Shown in pieces: positions 37,059-43,667 of a stretch of 64,000 bases of DNA (position 1 is the first letter of the stretch; every line of letters starts with the position of its first letter). Under the pieces are notes generated by a model that saw only the letters and a program-made list of their open reading frames with translations, was not told the origin of the DNA and did no database searches. Both the position numbers and the translations under genes were made by a program. The DNA is from an uncultured Gammaproteobacteria bacterium. GTDB taxonomy: Bacteria > Pseudomonadota > Gammaproteobacteria > UBA9214. The stretch spans positions 70,703 to 134,702 of the forward strand of contig CAVXNM010000027.1 in assembly GCA_963763115.1 (NCBI GenBank), in the 5' to 3' direction.

Positions 37059-37448
37059 GTGACACCTGAAACAGTCAGCAGCGTTCGTGCCGACAAGTGG
37101 CTCTGCGCGGCGCGCTTCTACAAAACCCGTACGCTGGCGATGCAGGCGATCAACGGCGGCAAGGTGCATGTCAACGGCGAGCGCGTCAAGCCCGCGCGCC
37201 GGCTCGTCACGGGCGACCGGCTGACCGTGCAGAAGGGGCCCTGTCGCTTTGTCATCACAGTCGAGCGGCTGTCGTTGCAGCGCGGTCCTGCGGAACAGGC
37301 GCGTGAGCTCTACAGTGAATCTGAACAGAGCAGGCTGGAGCGTCAAACCTTGGCTATGGAGCGTCGACTGCAGGGTCATGTACCGGGCCGGCATGAACGA
37401 CGACCGGACAAGCACGCGCGGCGGCAGCTGCGCGAGCTGAAACGATGA
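37059..37448 (+). CDS. hslR: Ribosome-associated heat shock protein Hsp15 (S4 RNA-binding domain)
   Basis: 'VRADKWLCAARFYKTRTLAMQAINGGKVHVNGERVKP' and C-terminal 'RRPDKHARRQLRELKR'. I favour GTG 37059 because the track start TTG 37044 lies inside the MITE end. Confidence 0.85.
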   Translation: MTPETVSSVRADKWLCAARFYKTRTLAMQAINGGKVHVNGERVKPARRLVTGDRLTVQKGPCRFVITVERLSLQRGPAEQARELYSESEQSRLERQTLAMERRLQGHVPGRHERRPDKHARRQLRELKR

Positions 37449-37891
37449 GCGCCGATATGAGCACACCGAAGACGCCGTTGCTGACCGTAGACATCATTAT
37501 CGAAATGGTCGACCGGCCCGCGCGTCCCATCGTCCTGATCGAGCGGCGTTACCCGCCGCATGGATGGGCCTTGCCCGGCGGCTTCGTCGATGTGGGTGAG
37601 ACGCTGGAGACGGCGGCGCGGCGTGAAGCGCGCGAGGAAACCGCCCTGGAAGTGGAACTGAGGCTGTTGCTCGGTTGTTATTCCGATCCCGCTCGCGATG
37701 CTCGCGGTCATTCCGCGAGCGCCGTCTATATCGCGGAGGCCCAGGGAGAACCACGGGCGGGTGACGATGCCGGCCACCTCGCACTGTTCGACCCTGCAGA
37801 CTGTCCGCCATTGGCCTTCGATCACGCGCGGATCATCGCGGATTATCGCACCTGGCTTGAAACCGGCCGCGTGGTGCCGCTGCGCGGCTAG
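37445..37891 (+). CDS. NUDIX hydrolase
   Basis: Nudix box 'GGFVDVGETLETAARREAREETAL'. ATGA overlap with the hslR stop. Confidence 0.88.
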   Translation: MSADMSTPKTPLLTVDIIIEMVDRPARPIVLIERRYPPHGWALPGGFVDVGETLETAARREAREETALEVELRLLLGCYSDPARDARGHSASAVYIAEAQGEPRAGDDAGHLALFDPADCPPLAFDHARIIADYRTWLETGRVVPLRG

Positions 37892-38054
37892 CGTGTGTAT
37901 CTGTCTGGTGCCGGATTCCGGCCATGATTTTCACGAGCAAAGCCAGTAAGATCCTTCCAGTGATATCACAACGGATTTTTTATTATCCTTGTCATTATTG
38001 AGAAATTCAGTATTCATGGCGCATCCTGATTCACACTGCAGCCATGCCGGTGTA

Positions 38055-38080
38055 GCCACGTGTCGGGAGCGACACGTGGC
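38055..38080. promoter_or_regulatory. Perfect 11 bp inverted repeat containing CACGTG, upstream of the MoxR-type ATPase gene
   Basis: 'gccacgtgtcg ggag cgacacgtggc' lies 78 nt upstream of ATG 38158 with no T-run after it. It could be an operator or an RNA hairpin. Confidence 0.3.
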
Positions 38081-38157
38081 CACTGATCACAGATGAAAAT
38101 TTCATACGGTGTCATGAATTTCGTAATCCCTGTAAATTAAGAATAGGACGAGCAAGC

Positions 38158-39204
38158 ATGCGACCCGCGCAGTTGCTGACAGTACTTGAGAGAGAGTTCC
38201 GGAGTACCCAGGAAGGACATCACACGCCCGTGATGCTGTGGGGGCCGCCGGGTGTGGGCAAATCACAGATGGTTGCCCAGATCGGAGAGCATCACGGCAT
38301 GCCGGTGATCGACATCCGCCTCTCACAGATGGAGCCGAGCGACCTGCGCGGCATTCCGTTTCGCGTCGGCGCGCAGGTGGAATGGGCCGTGCCCGCCATG
38401 CTCCCGGACGCCGAACGTCACGGGGAGCAGGGCATACTGTTTCTGGATGAAATCACTTCCGTACCACCCAGTGTCTCGGCTGCGGCTTATCAGCTGATTC
38501 TCGACCGCCGCCTGGGTGCCTATGTGGTTCCGGATGGTTGGGCCATTTTCGCTGCGGGAAACCGCCAGGGAGACCGGGGCGTGACCTACACTATGCCCGC
38601 GCCGCTCGCCAACCGTTTTTCCCACTATGAAGTCGATATCAACCTGGACGACTGGGTGGCCTGGGCCTATGCCAACAACATCGATGAACGCCTGATCGCC
38701 TTCCTGCGTTTCCGGCCCGAATTGCTGTTCGAATTCGACCCCGCGCACAACCCGGTGGCCTTCCCCTCGCCGCGCTCCTGGGAATTCAGCCACCGCGCCC
38801 TGCAGAAGTTCGGCGATCTCCCGAATCTGCTGACCGGCACGCTGCAGGCTTGCGTGGGGCCGGCGGCCGGGGTCGAACTCTCCGCCTTCGTCGAGAACCT
38901 CGACAAGCTGCCGGACATCGACGCCATCGTGCGCGGTGACGTGGTCAAGGTGCCGCGGGAGACCGATCTTCAGTATGCCATCGCGGCGGCCCTGGTGGGG
39001 CGCGCCATCCGCGCAAAGCAAGAAAGCGATGCGCAGTCAATATTCGGCAATATCATCGAATTCGCGGGCAGCTTCCCGCAACGCGAAATGGGTGTGATGC
39101 TGGTCTCCGACATGTACCGTGCGATCGGTCAGGACATCTTCCGCGTGCCGCAGTTCGCGCGCTGGGCGAACATCGTCGCAGATGTCATGCTCTACGACGT
39201 GTAG
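38158..39204 (+). CDS. MoxR-like AAA+ ATPase (AAA_5 type)
   Basis: Walker A GPPGVGKSQ, Walker B 'GILFLDEITS', 'FAAGNRQGDRG', 'PLANRFSHYEV' (sensor / Arg finger region). 348 aa. Confidence 0.88.
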   Translation: MRPAQLLTVLEREFRSTQEGHHTPVMLWGPPGVGKSQMVAQIGEHHGMPVIDIRLSQMEPSDLRGIPFRVGAQVEWAVPAMLPDAERHGEQGILFLDEITSVPPSVSAAAYQLILDRRLGAYVVPDGWAIFAAGNRQGDRGVTYTMPAPLANRFSHYEVDINLDDWVAWAYANNIDERLIAFLRFRPELLFEFDPAHNPVAFPSPRSWEFSHRALQKFGDLPNLLTGTLQACVGPAAGVELSAFVENLDKLPDIDAIVRGDVVKVPRETDLQYAIAAALVGRAIRAKQESDAQSIFGNIIEFAGSFPQREMGVMLVSDMYRAIGQDIFRVPQFARWANIVADVMLYDV

Positions 39205-39227
39205 TGCGCCTTTGGTCCCTGATAGAT

Positions 39228-39468
39228 AGCCACGGAATCCACGGAAGTACACGGAAAGATTTTTTGTATTATTAAGACTTACATAAATAACTGACGGAAT
39301 ATCTACTGTCGTCGTTCTTTCCCGCGAAAGCGGGAATCCGGAATTTCTTGATTTCCGGGATTCCGGCTTGCACTGGCCATGCTCGTTTAGCCGGAATGAC
39401 GATGAATTAGTGTCAACCGTTTATTTATAGTCAATAATTTTTCCGTGTTCTTCCGTGGATTCCGCGGC
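39228..39468. mobile_element. Nested MITE: family B element (CCACGGAA-type inverted ends) carrying a family C palindrome
   Basis: 'agccacggaatccacggaagtacacggaaag' (39228-) is inverted at 'tttttccgtgttcttccgtggattccgcggc' (to 39468). The interior holds 'ttcccgcgaaagcgggaatcc' (39313-39341). A short family B copy lies at 57161-57232. Confidence 0.8.
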
Positions 39469-39567
39469 CGTTTGTGCTCTTGTGCGGACGCTAGCCTCGA
39501 CGCAAGGCATCATTCAGGCAGGGTGGGTTTTATCCTCAGGCAAGACGGGGAGCGATCGAGGCCAATC

Positions 39568-40794
39568 ATGACAGACGAACTGGAAACCAAGCTCAGCGCT
39601 GCGCGCACCCGCCTGATACTGGACCGGCCCTTCCTGGGCGCGTTGGTGCTGCGCATGCCCATGAAGGCGGGCGATCCCCGGTGGTGCAAGACCATAGGGA
39701 CCGATGCGCGTGCCTTCTATTACAACCCCGGCTACATTGCCGGTCTGACGCTGGAACAGACCCAGTTCGCCCTGGCGCACGAGGCGCTGCATTGCGCACT
39801 GTCGCATTTTGCCCGACGCGAGCATCGCGTCAAGGCTCGCTGGGACAAGGCCTGCGACCTTGCCATCAACCCGATACTGATCAGGGAAGGCATGGCGGCG
39901 GTGCCGGGCGCGCTCTACGACGTCGGTTTCGAGGGGATGATGGCAGAGGAAATCTACCCCTATGTCAAGGAAGCGGACGAGGAAGAGCCGCACGATCAGC
40001 ATTTGTACAGCAACGAGAAGTCATCCCGGAACAAGCCCTCTGATCAGTCGAGCAGCACGGAGGGTGAACGGGGCCAGGCCCGGGAGGAGGATGCCGGGTC
40101 GGGAACAGGGCAGGGCACGGGTGAGGCAACCGACAGTGCGCCGCCGGAGCCGCTCGGCGAGATGGAAAAGGAGCAGCTCTCCGTGCAGTGGAGACAACGG
40201 CTGGCCGGCGCCGCACAGCAGGCCATGCAGGCCGGCAAGCTGGGCGGTAATCTGCGCCGTCTGGTGGATCACCTGCTGCAGCCGCAGTTGCCCTGGCGCA
40301 TGCTGCTGGCGCGTTACATGACCGCCGTCAGCCGGGATGACTACAGCTACATGCGGCCCTCGCGTCGAGAGGGCGAGGCGATCTTTCCCACGCTCAGAAG
40401 CGCACAGGCCGATATTGTGGTGGCGCTGGATACCAGCGGCTCGATCCGGGAAAGCGAGATGCGTGAATTCGTTACCGAGATCGATGCCATCAAGGGTCAG
40501 GTACGCGCGCGTATCGTATTGCAGGCCTGCGATGCACGGCTGTCCAGTGACGGCCCCTGGCGATTCGAGCCGTGGGAGTCCTTCGAGTTGCCGGATACCA
40601 TTCGTGGCGGTGGCGGCACCCGCTTCACACCGGTGTTCGACTGGATACGCCAGGAGGGGTGCAATCCGGATCTGCTGGTTTACTTTACCGATGCCCGGGG
40701 AGAATTCCCCAGGCAGGAGCCGTCCTTTCCGGTCATCTGGCTGGTCAAGGGACGCGCCGAAGTCCCCTGGGGACAGCGCATCCAGTTGAACTGA
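39568..40794 (+). CDS. Putative metallopeptidase (HExxH) + VWA-like domain protein (DUF2201-type), partner of the MoxR ATPase
   Basis: 'FALAHEALHCALSHF' (HExxH), an acidic low-complexity linker, and a VWA MIDAS motif 'VVALDTSGSI'. ATG 39568 with GAGG 6 nt upstream (the track ORF starts inside the MITE at 39445). Confidence 0.82.
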   Translation: MTDELETKLSAARTRLILDRPFLGALVLRMPMKAGDPRWCKTIGTDARAFYYNPGYIAGLTLEQTQFALAHEALHCALSHFARREHRVKARWDKACDLAINPILIREGMAAVPGALYDVGFEGMMAEEIYPYVKEADEEEPHDQHLYSNEKSSRNKPSDQSSSTEGERGQAREEDAGSGTGQGTGEATDSAPPEPLGEMEKEQLSVQWRQRLAGAAQQAMQAGKLGGNLRRLVDHLLQPQLPWRMLLARYMTAVSRDDYSYMRPSRREGEAIFPTLRSAQADIVVALDTSGSIRESEMREFVTEIDAIKGQVRARIVLQACDARLSSDGPWRFEPWESFELPDTIRGGGGTRFTPVFDWIRQEGCNPDLLVYFTDARGEFPRQEPSFPVIWLVKGRAEVPWGQRIQLN

Positions 40795-40830: not shown

Positions 40831-41613
<783 letters not shown>

Positions 41614-42017: not shown

Positions 42018-43667
42018 ATGGTTGCGGGTTTAAACAGACCAGAGGAAATCGATCCCTGCGGCATTCGCAAAATGCTGCGCCTGATCAATTCTCTGTGTGA
42101 CTCACCGGCGGGTAGTGTTATCTATCGCCAGCTCGAGTGCATGCTCGATGAAGTCGCCGCCAGTCATCTCAAGACGGAAATCGCCTATGCCGGTTTCGTC
42201 AATTCACTGCTGGAAGCGTTCATCTCGCACCTCACGCCGGGTTCCTCGCGTTATGTCCAGGTAAAACTGCTGCAGGCGCGGTTGCAACCGCCGTTAACCG
42301 CCACCGAGTTGAACACGCTCAGTGAGTTCGTTGCCCAGTGTGCTGATGACATTAGGAATGCGCGCGACGCCGGTTCCTCGACTTTGTACACGGCTATCAA
42401 CCCGCTGCTGCGCGCCTTCGGTATCGAAGAACTGGTATCGGCGGAGACTCCTGTGCCCGTGAGTAGGTGCGGCACCGCTGCAGCGTCGGAGCCCGTTCCT
42501 CGGACGCCGGTCGTCAAACCGGCAGCGCCGCCGGTAACGTTGACGGACGAGGAGGCGGACCTCTCACCCGAGGAGGAGGACGAAGCCGAGACGGACCTCT
42601 CGCCCGGGGAGGAAGATGAAGCCGTGACGGAACTCTCTCCCGGGGAGGAGGATGAAGCCGTGACGGAGCTCTCTCCCGGGGAGGAGGATGAAGCCGGGAC
42701 GTACCTCTTGCCCGAGGAGGCAGAGGAGGAAGCCGGTGCCGATGAGCTGTATGAAGCGGGTGATGATGCCGTTGCACCCAGGCTGCCCGGCATGGGCGAA
42801 GAGGAATATAACTGCGAACTCGACGCCCGGCGTGAGGATATCCGGCAACTGCAATCCAGTCTGGGACAGCAGGTCATGGAGACGATTTCCCAGAATGAGG
42901 AATTTGGCGTAATTCTCGAGGTGATTCTGGCCGAGTTGCGCCAGGCCGAAGAGGTCTCCGGTATCGAGAATGCGCGCTGGACGCTGATCCGCGAGGTCGA
43001 GAAGCTCATGAAGGGGCACAATGAGCTTGCCGACAAGCTCGACAGTACCCACCACTATCTGCAACTGGTCGAATCGGACAGCCGCGAGTTGACCGATGAA
43101 TTGAGCCGGGTGCGGATGCTCAGTCTGACCGATGAGTTGACTGGTCTCGCGAATCGCCGCGCTTTCATGCGGCGACTTGAGGATGAGGTGGCGCGGGTGC
43201 AGCGTTACGGGTTCCCCCTGTCTTTCGCGCTCATGGACCTCGACCATTTCAAGGGCGTCAACGACGAGTACGGTCATGCCGCCGGCGACGAGGTTCTGCG
43301 TGTCTATTCCAAGAATATCCTCTCGGTATTCCGCCACCACGACATGGTGGCCCGCTATGGCGGCGAGGAATTCGCCGTCCTGCTGCCGAATACCGATGCC
43401 GACGGCGCCATACGCGCGCTGAACAAGGTCAGGCGCCGCGCCGCGGAAACACGCTGGCAAAACAACGGCACCATTTCGCAGGTGCCGTCGTTTTCCGCCG
43501 GCGTATCACTGTTCAAGCCCGGCGAATCGGCCAGCGCGTTCATCGAACGCGCCGACAAGGCCCTCTACCGCGCCAAGCGCCTGGGGCGCGACCGTATCGA
43601 GCTGGATGTAACCTACGAAACCGAGGAAAGTCACCGCTCCCCGCGCCGGCGCAGCACCGATCTCTGA
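42018..43667 (+). CDS. Diguanylate cyclase (GGDEF) with a long N-terminal region containing an acidic tandem repeat and a coiled-coil-like segment
   Basis: Active site 'RYGGEEFAVLLP', I-site RHHD five residues upstream, 'LTGLANRRAF', 'DLDHFKGVNDEYGHAAGD'. The start could be 42018 or the ATG 18 codons downstream. Confidence 0.88.
   Translation: MVAGLNRPEEIDPCGIRKMLRLINSLCDSPAGSVIYRQLECMLDEVAASHLKTEIAYAGFVNSLLEAFISHLTPGSSRYVQVKLLQARLQPPLTATELNTLSEFVAQCADDIRNARDAGSSTLYTAINPLLRAFGIEELVSAETPVPVSRCGTAAASEPVPRTPVVKPAAPPVTLTDEEADLSPEEEDEAETDLSPGEEDEAVTELSPGEEDEAVTELSPGEEDEAGTYLLPEEAEEEAGADELYEAGDDAVAPRLPGMGEEEYNCELDARREDIRQLQSSLGQQVMETISQNEEFGVILEVILAELRQAEEVSGIENARWTLIREVEKLMKGHNELADKLDSTHHYLQLVESDSRELTDELSRVRMLSLTDELTGLANRRAFMRRLEDEVARVQRYGFPLSFALMDLDHFKGVNDEYGHAAGDEVLRVYSKNILSVFRHHDMVARYGGEEFAVLLPNTDADGAIRALNKVRRRAAETRWQNNGTISQVPSFSAGVSLFKPGESASAFIERADKALYRAKRLGRDRIELDVTYETEESHRSPRRRSTDL
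42558..42737 (+). repeat. In-frame 36 bp tandem repeat (5 units) inside the GGDEF gene
   Basis: Units encode DLSPEEEDEAET / DLSPGEEDEAVT / ELSPGEEDEAVT / ELSPGEEDEAGT / YLLPEEAEEEAG. Units 2-4 are nearly identical at the DNA level. Confidence 0.9.

Follow-up and report, generated by a model that had tools for sequence, protein, structure and literature searches.

Within the MoxR group of AAA+ ATPases, in which the subfamilies MRP, CGN, RavA, TM0930, APE2220, PA2707 and YehL have been distinguished (PMC9964418), the described systems that come closest to the one considered here are those where the ATPase is paired with a protein carrying a VWA (von Willebrand factor A) domain. In CbbQ/CbbO, the best-studied analogue, the MIDAS (metal-ion-dependent adhesion site) of CbbO holds on to Asp82 in the large subunit of Rubisco, and the CbbQ hexamer carries out an ATP-driven remodelling (PMC5385338). 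The subject of the present analysis is a pair of this general kind, encoded by two consecutive genes (here called moxR and vwa) in a 64,000-nucleotide stretch of DNA from an uncultured gammaproteobacterium, referred to below as the window; its VWA protein also has an N-terminal, putatively zinc-peptidase (zincin) domain. Neither the domain families nor the principle of a MoxR-VWA pair is new, but in the literature and libraries searched the version with a zincin domain is uncharacterised. Comparison of genomes establishes, at the level of gene content and gene order, that the pair is part of a module that is conserved and non-mobile, the presence of which is tied to dsrS and, via dsrS, to the reverse dissimilatory sulfite reductase (rDsr) pathway.

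Set beside CbbQ/CbbO and NorQ/NorD, the pair shares the two-gene design of a MoxR ATPase with a VWA/MIDAS protein, as well as a genomic tie to one metabolic enzyme system, for which it is an accessory that is not universal among the carriers. There are, however, several differences: an NCBIfam scan of both proteins gave no equivalog match and nothing beyond P-loop noise; MoxR is 348 residues (aa) long, including a long C-terminal extension; the VWA protein is short (408 aa) and has the N-terminal zincin domain that is missing in CbbO and NorD; and there are additional helical-repeat partners, DsrS and Sel1, with a client that is a candidate by inference. No Rubisco, cNOR or LdcI client gene lies near the pair in the window, and the pair cannot be assigned to CbbQ/CbbO, NorQ/NorD or RavA/ViaA. 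A search of the PDB by sequence returned for MoxR just Midasin and NorQ, within their AAA+ modules (the NorQ match, with E 1e-4, is limited to aa 21-119, the N-terminal part of the module), and nothing for the VWA protein. The initial annotation had credited the pair with no experimentally defined substrate, which holds for the literature and libraries searched, and had named assignment to a characterised MoxR-VWA subfamily with a known client as what would refute novelty; the pair belongs to no such subfamily, given the lack of an equivalog and Midasin and NorQ matches that reach barely beyond the AAA+ module.

That annotation had also remarked that no obvious client is adjacent, which is correct for this locus but not elsewhere: a survey of gene neighbourhoods, one of the checks it proposed, yields DsrS as a recurrent third partner, together with Sel1 and often a siroheme synthase, and in the window's own genome dsrS lies on another contig near dsrA. 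In Sedimenticola selenatireducens, a gene overlapping the stop codon of vwa has a 46%-identical homologue on contig C58 of the window's genome, where it forms part of sel1-dsrS-cysG some 8 kb from dsrA. The C58 gene is identified as dsrS because a 50%-identical homologue occupies the 15th position in a dsrABEFHCMKLJOPNRS cluster of canonical order (in genome G019, where nine of the other 14 genes were confirmed by NCBIfam and the remaining five by size and order), because homologues 64-69% identical to it carry the NCBI name “sulfur reduction protein DsrS”, and because dsrS of Allochromatium vinosum has been assigned as Alvin_1265 (PMC10892978). The C58 gene is thus a homologue of Alvin_1265, the last gene of the A. 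vinosum cluster, but differs from it in position, being found beside sel1 and cysG, outside the window, and not at the end of the dsr operon.

In a set of 80 DsrS loci, those from close relatives of this genome have the order duf6866-orf218-sel1-dsrS-cysG and more distant ones the order sel1-moxR-vwa-dsrS(-cysG), so that in the window's clade the pair stands outside an otherwise intact cluster. The gene orders show that the pair of this genome was relocated from sel1-[moxR-vwa]-dsrS-cysG to its present place, with a Nudix hydrolase gene on one side and adk on the other. Compared with the pairs found inside sel1-moxR-vwa-dsrS, the VWA protein is 53-62% and MoxR 72-76% identical, and it is on this high identity, together with the presence of dsrS and dsrA in the same genome, that the pair is counted among the DsrS-linked orthologues. 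The family comprises 18,689 cluster representatives with an E of 1e-3 or better, and within it these orthologues form the top-scoring set, which is followed by a gap in score.

The strength of the association can be judged from a sample of 401 Gammaproteobacteria, drawn evenly over families. The vwa orthologue is present in 108 of these genomes and dsrS likewise in 108; 106 have both, two have vwa only and two dsrS only (Fisher p 2e-92). When just the 127 genomes with dsrA are considered, 101 have both, none has vwa only, two have dsrS only and 24 have neither (p 7e-24), and since the co-occurrence persists within this set, the association exceeds what a sulfur-oxidising lifestyle would account for. 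Of the discordant genomes, one (G076) has a dsrS pseudogene fragment and lacks the pair, and another (G251) is 72% complete and is also missing dsrA; the other two are taken up below. The 24 dsrA-bearing genomes without both genes come from 21 families, 11 of which also have a sampled member with both, a scatter of joint absences that points, on this profile, to many independent joint gains or losses. As an internal control, Sfum_1244/DUF6866, a different gene from this dsr neighbourhood, gave 74, 26, 10 and 16 in the dsrA-bearing genomes (same order of categories); it loosely tracks dsrA, not the pair, and was therefore rejected as a further member of the module.

In 51 of the 106 genomes with both genes dsrS lies directly 3' of vwa on the same strand (with gaps of less than 75 nt in 31 of the 51), and in the other 55 it is unlinked, both arrangements being found within at least seven families. 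Five named genomes that bear DsrS, namely those of Thiocapsa roseopersicina DSM 217, two Thiohalocapsa species, the Solemya velum symbiont and a Chromatiaceae isolate, all (5/5) have adjacent moxR and vwa genes unlinked from dsrS, as in the window. A. vinosum was not among the 80 loci returned.

As to what DsrS might be, its predicted structure (predicted local distance difference test score, pLDDT, 89.7; predicted template modelling score, pTM, 0.86) consists of a small N-terminal beta unit and an all-helical repeat body, for which Foldseek found neither a significant PDB match nor a match to a catalytic fold; on this model, DsrS looks like a scaffold or adaptor rather than an enzyme. The Sel1 protein is a small helical-repeat adaptor. 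DsrS and DsrR have been discussed as acting post-transcriptionally, and deletion of dsrS in A. vinosum slows sulfur oxidation but does not abolish it.

The link between the pair and dsrS is strong; the mechanism behind it has to be inferred. The reading that we favour, judging from the genomic associations just described, is that the pair is probably the ATPase and adaptor core of an accessory rDsr module for the oxidation of stored sulfur, working with DsrS and usually with Sel1. By analogy with CbbQ/CbbO and NorQ/NorD, a MoxR hexamer would supply the force, driven by ATP, the VWA protein would use its invariant MIDAS site to hold an acidic residue belonging either to the client or to DsrS, and DsrS and Sel1 would serve as specificity scaffolds. 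Such a machine would remodel a Dsr component, the likeliest target being DsrAB because the siroheme synthase gene is so often next, and would do so either to load a cofactor or to release the target when it is trapped in a dead-end state; the zincin domain may add a processing or self-processing step that is usually kept and can be lost. A narrower proposal, and a distinctly more tentative one, is that MoxR, the zincin-VWA protein, DsrS and Sel1 might together constitute a dedicated, ATP-driven rDsr activase/maturase, responsible for loading or exchange of siroheme or siroamide or for the freeing of DsrAB, with DsrS as the scaffold holding the client.

The frequency with which cysG accompanies dsrS (within 1.5 kb on its 3' side in 41 of the 64 loci with enough sequence, and also in the window's own genome) bears also on a different idea, namely that the pair works with CysG and not on the DsrAB protein, and that, like the AAA+/VWA pairs found in Mg- and Co-chelatases, it powers the synthesis, amidation or transfer of siroheme or siroamide. 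The position of dsrS after dsrN, a siroheme amidase homologue, in the canonical operon is consistent with this, as is a weak match of MoxR to the CobS-like family phrog_249 (“porphyrin biosynthesis”, E 4e-10). That match, however, does not reach beyond aa 21-118, which lie in the AAA+ core, no CobN/BchH-type chelatase catalytic subunit is present in the neighbourhood, CysG carries a chelatase domain of its own, and the cysG link is looser than the dsrS link, so that a tetrapyrrole motor of this kind is improbable.

All of this must be set against a number of points that tell against assigning the pair to an rDsr module. The support is comparative-genomic throughout, and the function of DsrS itself is stated as unresolved (PMC3368242), no biochemical role being known for it, so that the link joins two unknowns. 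The 24 dsrA-bearing genomes that lack the module imply that rDsr can work without it, and hence that the module is an accessory, in agreement with the slowed but not abolished sulfur oxidation after dsrS deletion in A. vinosum. In the window's genome the pair is both unlinked from dsrS and split by an insertion, and one of the discordant genomes (G367) is a 98%-complete relative that has dsrS and neither moxR nor vwa. The remaining discordant genome (G135) has no Dsr genes and yet encodes a diverged pair, the VWA protein being 47% and MoxR 55% identical, between mnmE and argH. Peptidase activity probably matters, given that the HExxH motif is kept in 94 of 97 VWA orthologues, and the chaperone analogy leaves that retention unexplained. 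Finally, a family with so many cluster representatives, common in phages, must have a generic function that is not specific to Dsr. The locus in G135 (L256, G135:C14:17500-28500, between yidC-mnmE and argH) is of some interest in itself, as a sister lineage without an evident client.

Turning to the proteins themselves, the first gene had been described as a MoxR-type AAA+ ATPase with intact motifs, and this is borne out: MoxR scores above the gathering threshold for Pfam AAA_5 (38.2 bits, cut-off 22), and its Walker A and Walker B motifs, like the sensor segment AAGNRQGDRG that comes after Walker B, consist of residues conserved in at least 85%, and mostly at least 98%, of 84 orthologues (nearly all Walker A residues reach at least 98%). 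At every locus with enough sequence, moxR is immediately 5' of vwa. In the Snider and Houry tree the pair may belong to the TM0930 subfamily, since Thermotoga maritima scored for DUF2201_N, as a control match.

The second protein had likewise been divided correctly, a putative zincin domain being joined by an acidic linker to a VWA domain with MIDAS: it matches Pfam DUF2201_N (162.2 bits, cut-off 23.2) and the VWA-like DUF2201 (80 bits, cut-off 26.4) in N-to-C order, and contains both FALAHEALHCALSHF (with HEALH at nt 39778-39792) and ALDTSGS (with DTSGS at nt 40429-40443). The longest open reading frame runs from a GTG at 39445 to 40794, and its first 41 codons pass through the insertion described below and are not conserved; the start common to 97 orthologues is the ATG at 39568, preceded by GAGG. 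An AlphaFold2 model (mean pLDDT 75) divides the protein into five parts: a strand-helix-helix unit containing HEALHCALSH, the acidic disordered linker (pLDDT 26-52 over aa 148-189), a helical segment, a low-confidence motif, and the C-terminal VWA domain. When the whole model was submitted to Foldseek, the VWA domain alone was recovered, matching integrin I domains (probability 1.0, best E 3e-4). The coordinates of these features are collected in Table 1.

Table 1. Positions of the moxR-vwa pair, its motifs and insertion in the window, and of dsrS and dsrA on contig C58 of the same genome (G000).
Feature	Position	Strand	Basis
moxR, MoxR-type AAA+ ATPase, 348 aa	38158..39204	+	Pfam AAA_5, phrog_1297
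Walker A GPPGVGKS, aa 29-36	38242..38265	+	translation check, orthologue alignment
Walker B LFLDE, aa 94-98	38437..38451	+	translation check, orthologue alignment
MITE-like insert, 240 bp, with 36-nt inverted ends (GCCACGGAATCCACGGAAG...)	39229..39468		inverted arms
vwa, zincin (DUF2201_N), acidic linker and VWA (DUF2201), 408 aa	39568..40794	+	Pfam, phrog_1314, orthologue alignment
Zincin motif HEALHCALSH (HExxH, conserved His five residues later)	39778..39807	+	alignment
Acidic variable disordered linker, about aa 136-196	39973..40155	+	pLDDT, non-conserved columns
Linear motif DDYSYxRPSRRxGxxxxPxLxS, directly 5' of VWA domain	40336..40401	+	alignment; pLDDT <50
VWA domain with complete MIDAS (D288-x-S290-x-S292, T351, D375)	40408..40791	+	Foldseek, alignment
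dsrS	G000:C58:49216-50337		homology
dsrA	C58:58178-59386		genome search

How far the HExxH and MIDAS motifs are each retained is directly relevant to the main rival explanation, according to which the pair would be a regulatory ATP-dependent protease: MoxR would unfold or present the substrate, and the zincin would cleave DsrS, or a Dsr component delivered by DsrS or Sel1, thereby controlling Dsr levels post-transcriptionally. In its favour, HExxH is accompanied by a conserved downstream His and Asp in the 94 orthologues mentioned above, and in 127 cluster representatives outside the DsrS-linked group conservation is 95% or higher at each of H71, H75, H80 and D97, and 88% at the catalytic E72. 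The predicted strand-helix-helix layout of the N-terminus is compatible with a zincin fold, to which can be added a marginal match (E 0.036) of the orthologue profile to the minimal zincin MJ1213. The apparently unstructured motif between the peptidase and VWA domains, with the invariant residues R256, D258, R263, P264, S265, R267, G269, P274 and S278, is also conserved family-wide and could be a cleavage or docking site, and in A. vinosum dsrS has its own promoter (PMC3368242). The rival is weakened, however, by the three remaining orthologues, where KQALH replaces HExxH and both the first His and the catalytic Glu are gone, although MIDAS, all other conserved residues and the full sel1-moxR-vwa-dsrS-cysG operon are retained (these are at L138, L153 and L159, in Thiotrichales-type metagenome-assembled genomes from different studies). 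The motif that is never lost is MIDAS, not HExxH: D288, S290 and S292 are invariant in 140 of 140 cluster representatives, with T351 and D375 99% conserved. Furthermore, characterised MoxR ATPases remodel their clients and do not thread them for degradation (PMC5385338). A protease of this kind thus seems unlikely, while being the alternative most deserving of attention. The initial annotation had proposed that loss of the HExxH or MIDAS residues in orthologues would argue against catalytic roles; the outcome is divided, MIDAS being constant, and HExxH being changed to KQALH in 3/97, with the Glu absent from about 10% of the wider family.

Both genes of the pair are real, as had been annotated, but they are not tightly adjacent in this genome: the spacer is 363 bp long and contains the 240-bp insert listed in Table 1, which resembles a miniature inverted-repeat transposable element (MITE) and the arms of which (39229-39264 and 39433-39468) are 89% complementary. 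The right arm is crossed by the longest reading frame of vwa. Copies of the MITE end occur on contigs C35, C36, C50, C63 and C86 and elsewhere on C27, and in all on at least six other contigs. In most relatives the distance between moxR and vwa is just 4-40 nt. In this clade the spacer is a hot spot for insertions, and its length ranges from 180 to 1970 bp; in some close relatives (at L012:6062-8134, and also in L014 and L022) a large opposite-strand membrane-protein gene lies between moxR and vwa, which means that the pair is not a single transcript there. By eye, the inserted gene resembles one for a Na/Pi cotransporter that ends in a PhoU-like tail. A scan of the locus against Rfam and a scan for promoters and terminators gave nothing above chance. 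A near-perfect 14-nt palindrome, GTAGCCACGTGTCG/CGACACGTGGCCAC, with CACGTG cores, is present at 38052-38083, about 75 nt 5' of the moxR start, and since no T-run follows it, its sequence suggests a site for protein binding more than it does a terminator.

The pair is flanked, as first described, by a Nudix hydrolase gene (37445-37891) and adk (40951-41613), within an order trmD-rplS-htpG-(dsbA)-hslR-nudix-moxR-vwa-adk-ggdef-trx that is found again, complete or partial, at the majority of the 80 loci retrieved (from metagenome-assembled genomes of sulfur oxidisers and from isolates such as Thiohalobacter, Thiogranum and Ectothiorhodospiraceae). Because the pair sits between htpG-dsbA-hslR-nudix and adk in dozens of relatives, and because certain MoxR proteins have been reported as stress chaperones (PMC11432383), one might suppose that it serves general stress proteostasis with htpG and hslR and has nothing to do with sulfur metabolism. 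This is very unlikely, given that in other lineages the orthologous pair lies within sel1-moxR-vwa-dsrS, that its distribution tracks dsrS and not the near-universal htpG, and that in relatives an opposite-strand response-regulator gene separates nudix from moxR; a heat-shock link via htpG and hslR, being a matter of position only, was rejected. An HDOD protein and a response regulator, encoded as third genes beside the pair in close relatives, were also considered and are not conserved partners. Over the 23 loci with all markers MoxR has a median identity of 83% and Adk one of 82%, the values for HtpG and the VWA protein being 70.5% and 69%, and the agreement between MoxR and Adk indicates that the pair is under housekeeping-grade constraint.

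Related pairs also occur in phages. Those resembling gp24/gp25 of phage N4, and those of jumbo phages, are likewise uncharacterised and belong to the same two families with the same domain architecture, phrog_1297 for MoxR (E 3e-91) and phrog_1314 for the VWA protein (E 8e-85); homologues are encoded in 655 phage records, including that of a Thermus phage, and for the jumbo-phage MoxR and metallopeptidase-vWA pair a chaperone/co-chaperone function with peptidolytic processing has been proposed (Iyer et al. 2021, PMC7824862). A MoxR and vWA core, with a peptidase occasionally fused to the vWA protein, is similarly characteristic of the vWA-MoxR-VMAP ternary conflict systems (Kaur et al. 2020, PMC7159879). 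These likenesses raise the question of whether the pair could be a prophage remnant or an anti-phage (conflict) system of the vWA-MoxR type, a conflict role having also been mentioned when the locus was first annotated, but such a reading is scarcely credible. The phage homologues are just 22-30% identical, none exceeding about 30%, on which ground a recent phage origin was rejected, and they reside in phage genomes with a proposed role in virion assembly, whereas the present pair is chromosomal, vertically inherited and tied to dsrS. PADLOC gave for MoxR just P-loop-level matches (E 9e-5 or weaker) and for the VWA protein none, leaving the defence interpretation unsupported; the bpMoxR Pfam score of MoxR (16.4) is below the cut-off of 27; and in contrast to the ternary systems no VMAP or effector genes were seen with the pair in a Pfam scan, the context being a housekeeping and metabolic one. 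Nor are there phage genes near the pair in the window, the G+C content of the locus is unremarkable, synteny is vertical and evolution slow. On the evidence of sequence and gene order, the pair is neither mobile nor defensive, and its inheritance is vertical.

No published link between dsrS and MoxR, or between dsrS and a MoxR/VWA pair, was found in the searchable literature, and no literature was found for COG3864 or joining A. vinosum with a relevant VWA protein; mentions of DUF2201 in the literature are incidental. What the window adds is an example of the unlinked arrangement, a quantitative profile over the whole class that includes an internal control, and a lineage in which HExxH is lost. 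Ever since the dsr cluster of sulfur oxidisers was described, DsrS has stood in it unexplained, and the pair now offers it a testable working partner. The DUF2201 zincin-VWA/MoxR family, for all its 18,689 cluster representatives, has no experimentally defined function in the literature or libraries searched; as the strict link survives repeated unlinking of the genes, each of the pair and DsrS provides a handle on the other. If the activase/maturase proposal were true, it would give the first assigned function for DsrS and for the DUF2201 / N4 gp24-gp25 family, and if the pair does remodel DsrAB it would be the third enzyme-specific MoxR-VWA activase/maturase, after those of Rubisco and NO reductase, at a key step of the global sulfur cycle. 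Direct experiments are possible, as cultivable and non-pathogenic purple sulfur bacteria share the unlinked arrangement of this genome.

Some further observations made in passing may be recorded here. The Sfum_1244/DUF6866 gene that served as a control (G000:C58:52369-53376; L083:13310-14395) is divergent from orf218-sel1-dsrS and in the class-wide sample is nearly restricted to genomes with dsrA (84/89), while tracking the MoxR/VWA/DsrS trio just loosely; it is another uncharacterised Dsr-associated gene. The zincin-VWA family phrog_1314 carries the label “HNH endonuclease”, which has spread to many phage records (H2-H7, H13) and looks like a mis-annotation; in phage Pollock (L166) a genuine HNH homing endonuclease has been inserted next to the gene for the gp24-like ATPase. 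Lastly, the GGDEF protein encoded 3' of adk (42018-43667) has tandem acidic repeats, LSPGEEDEA[VE]TE, in several copies in its N-terminal half.

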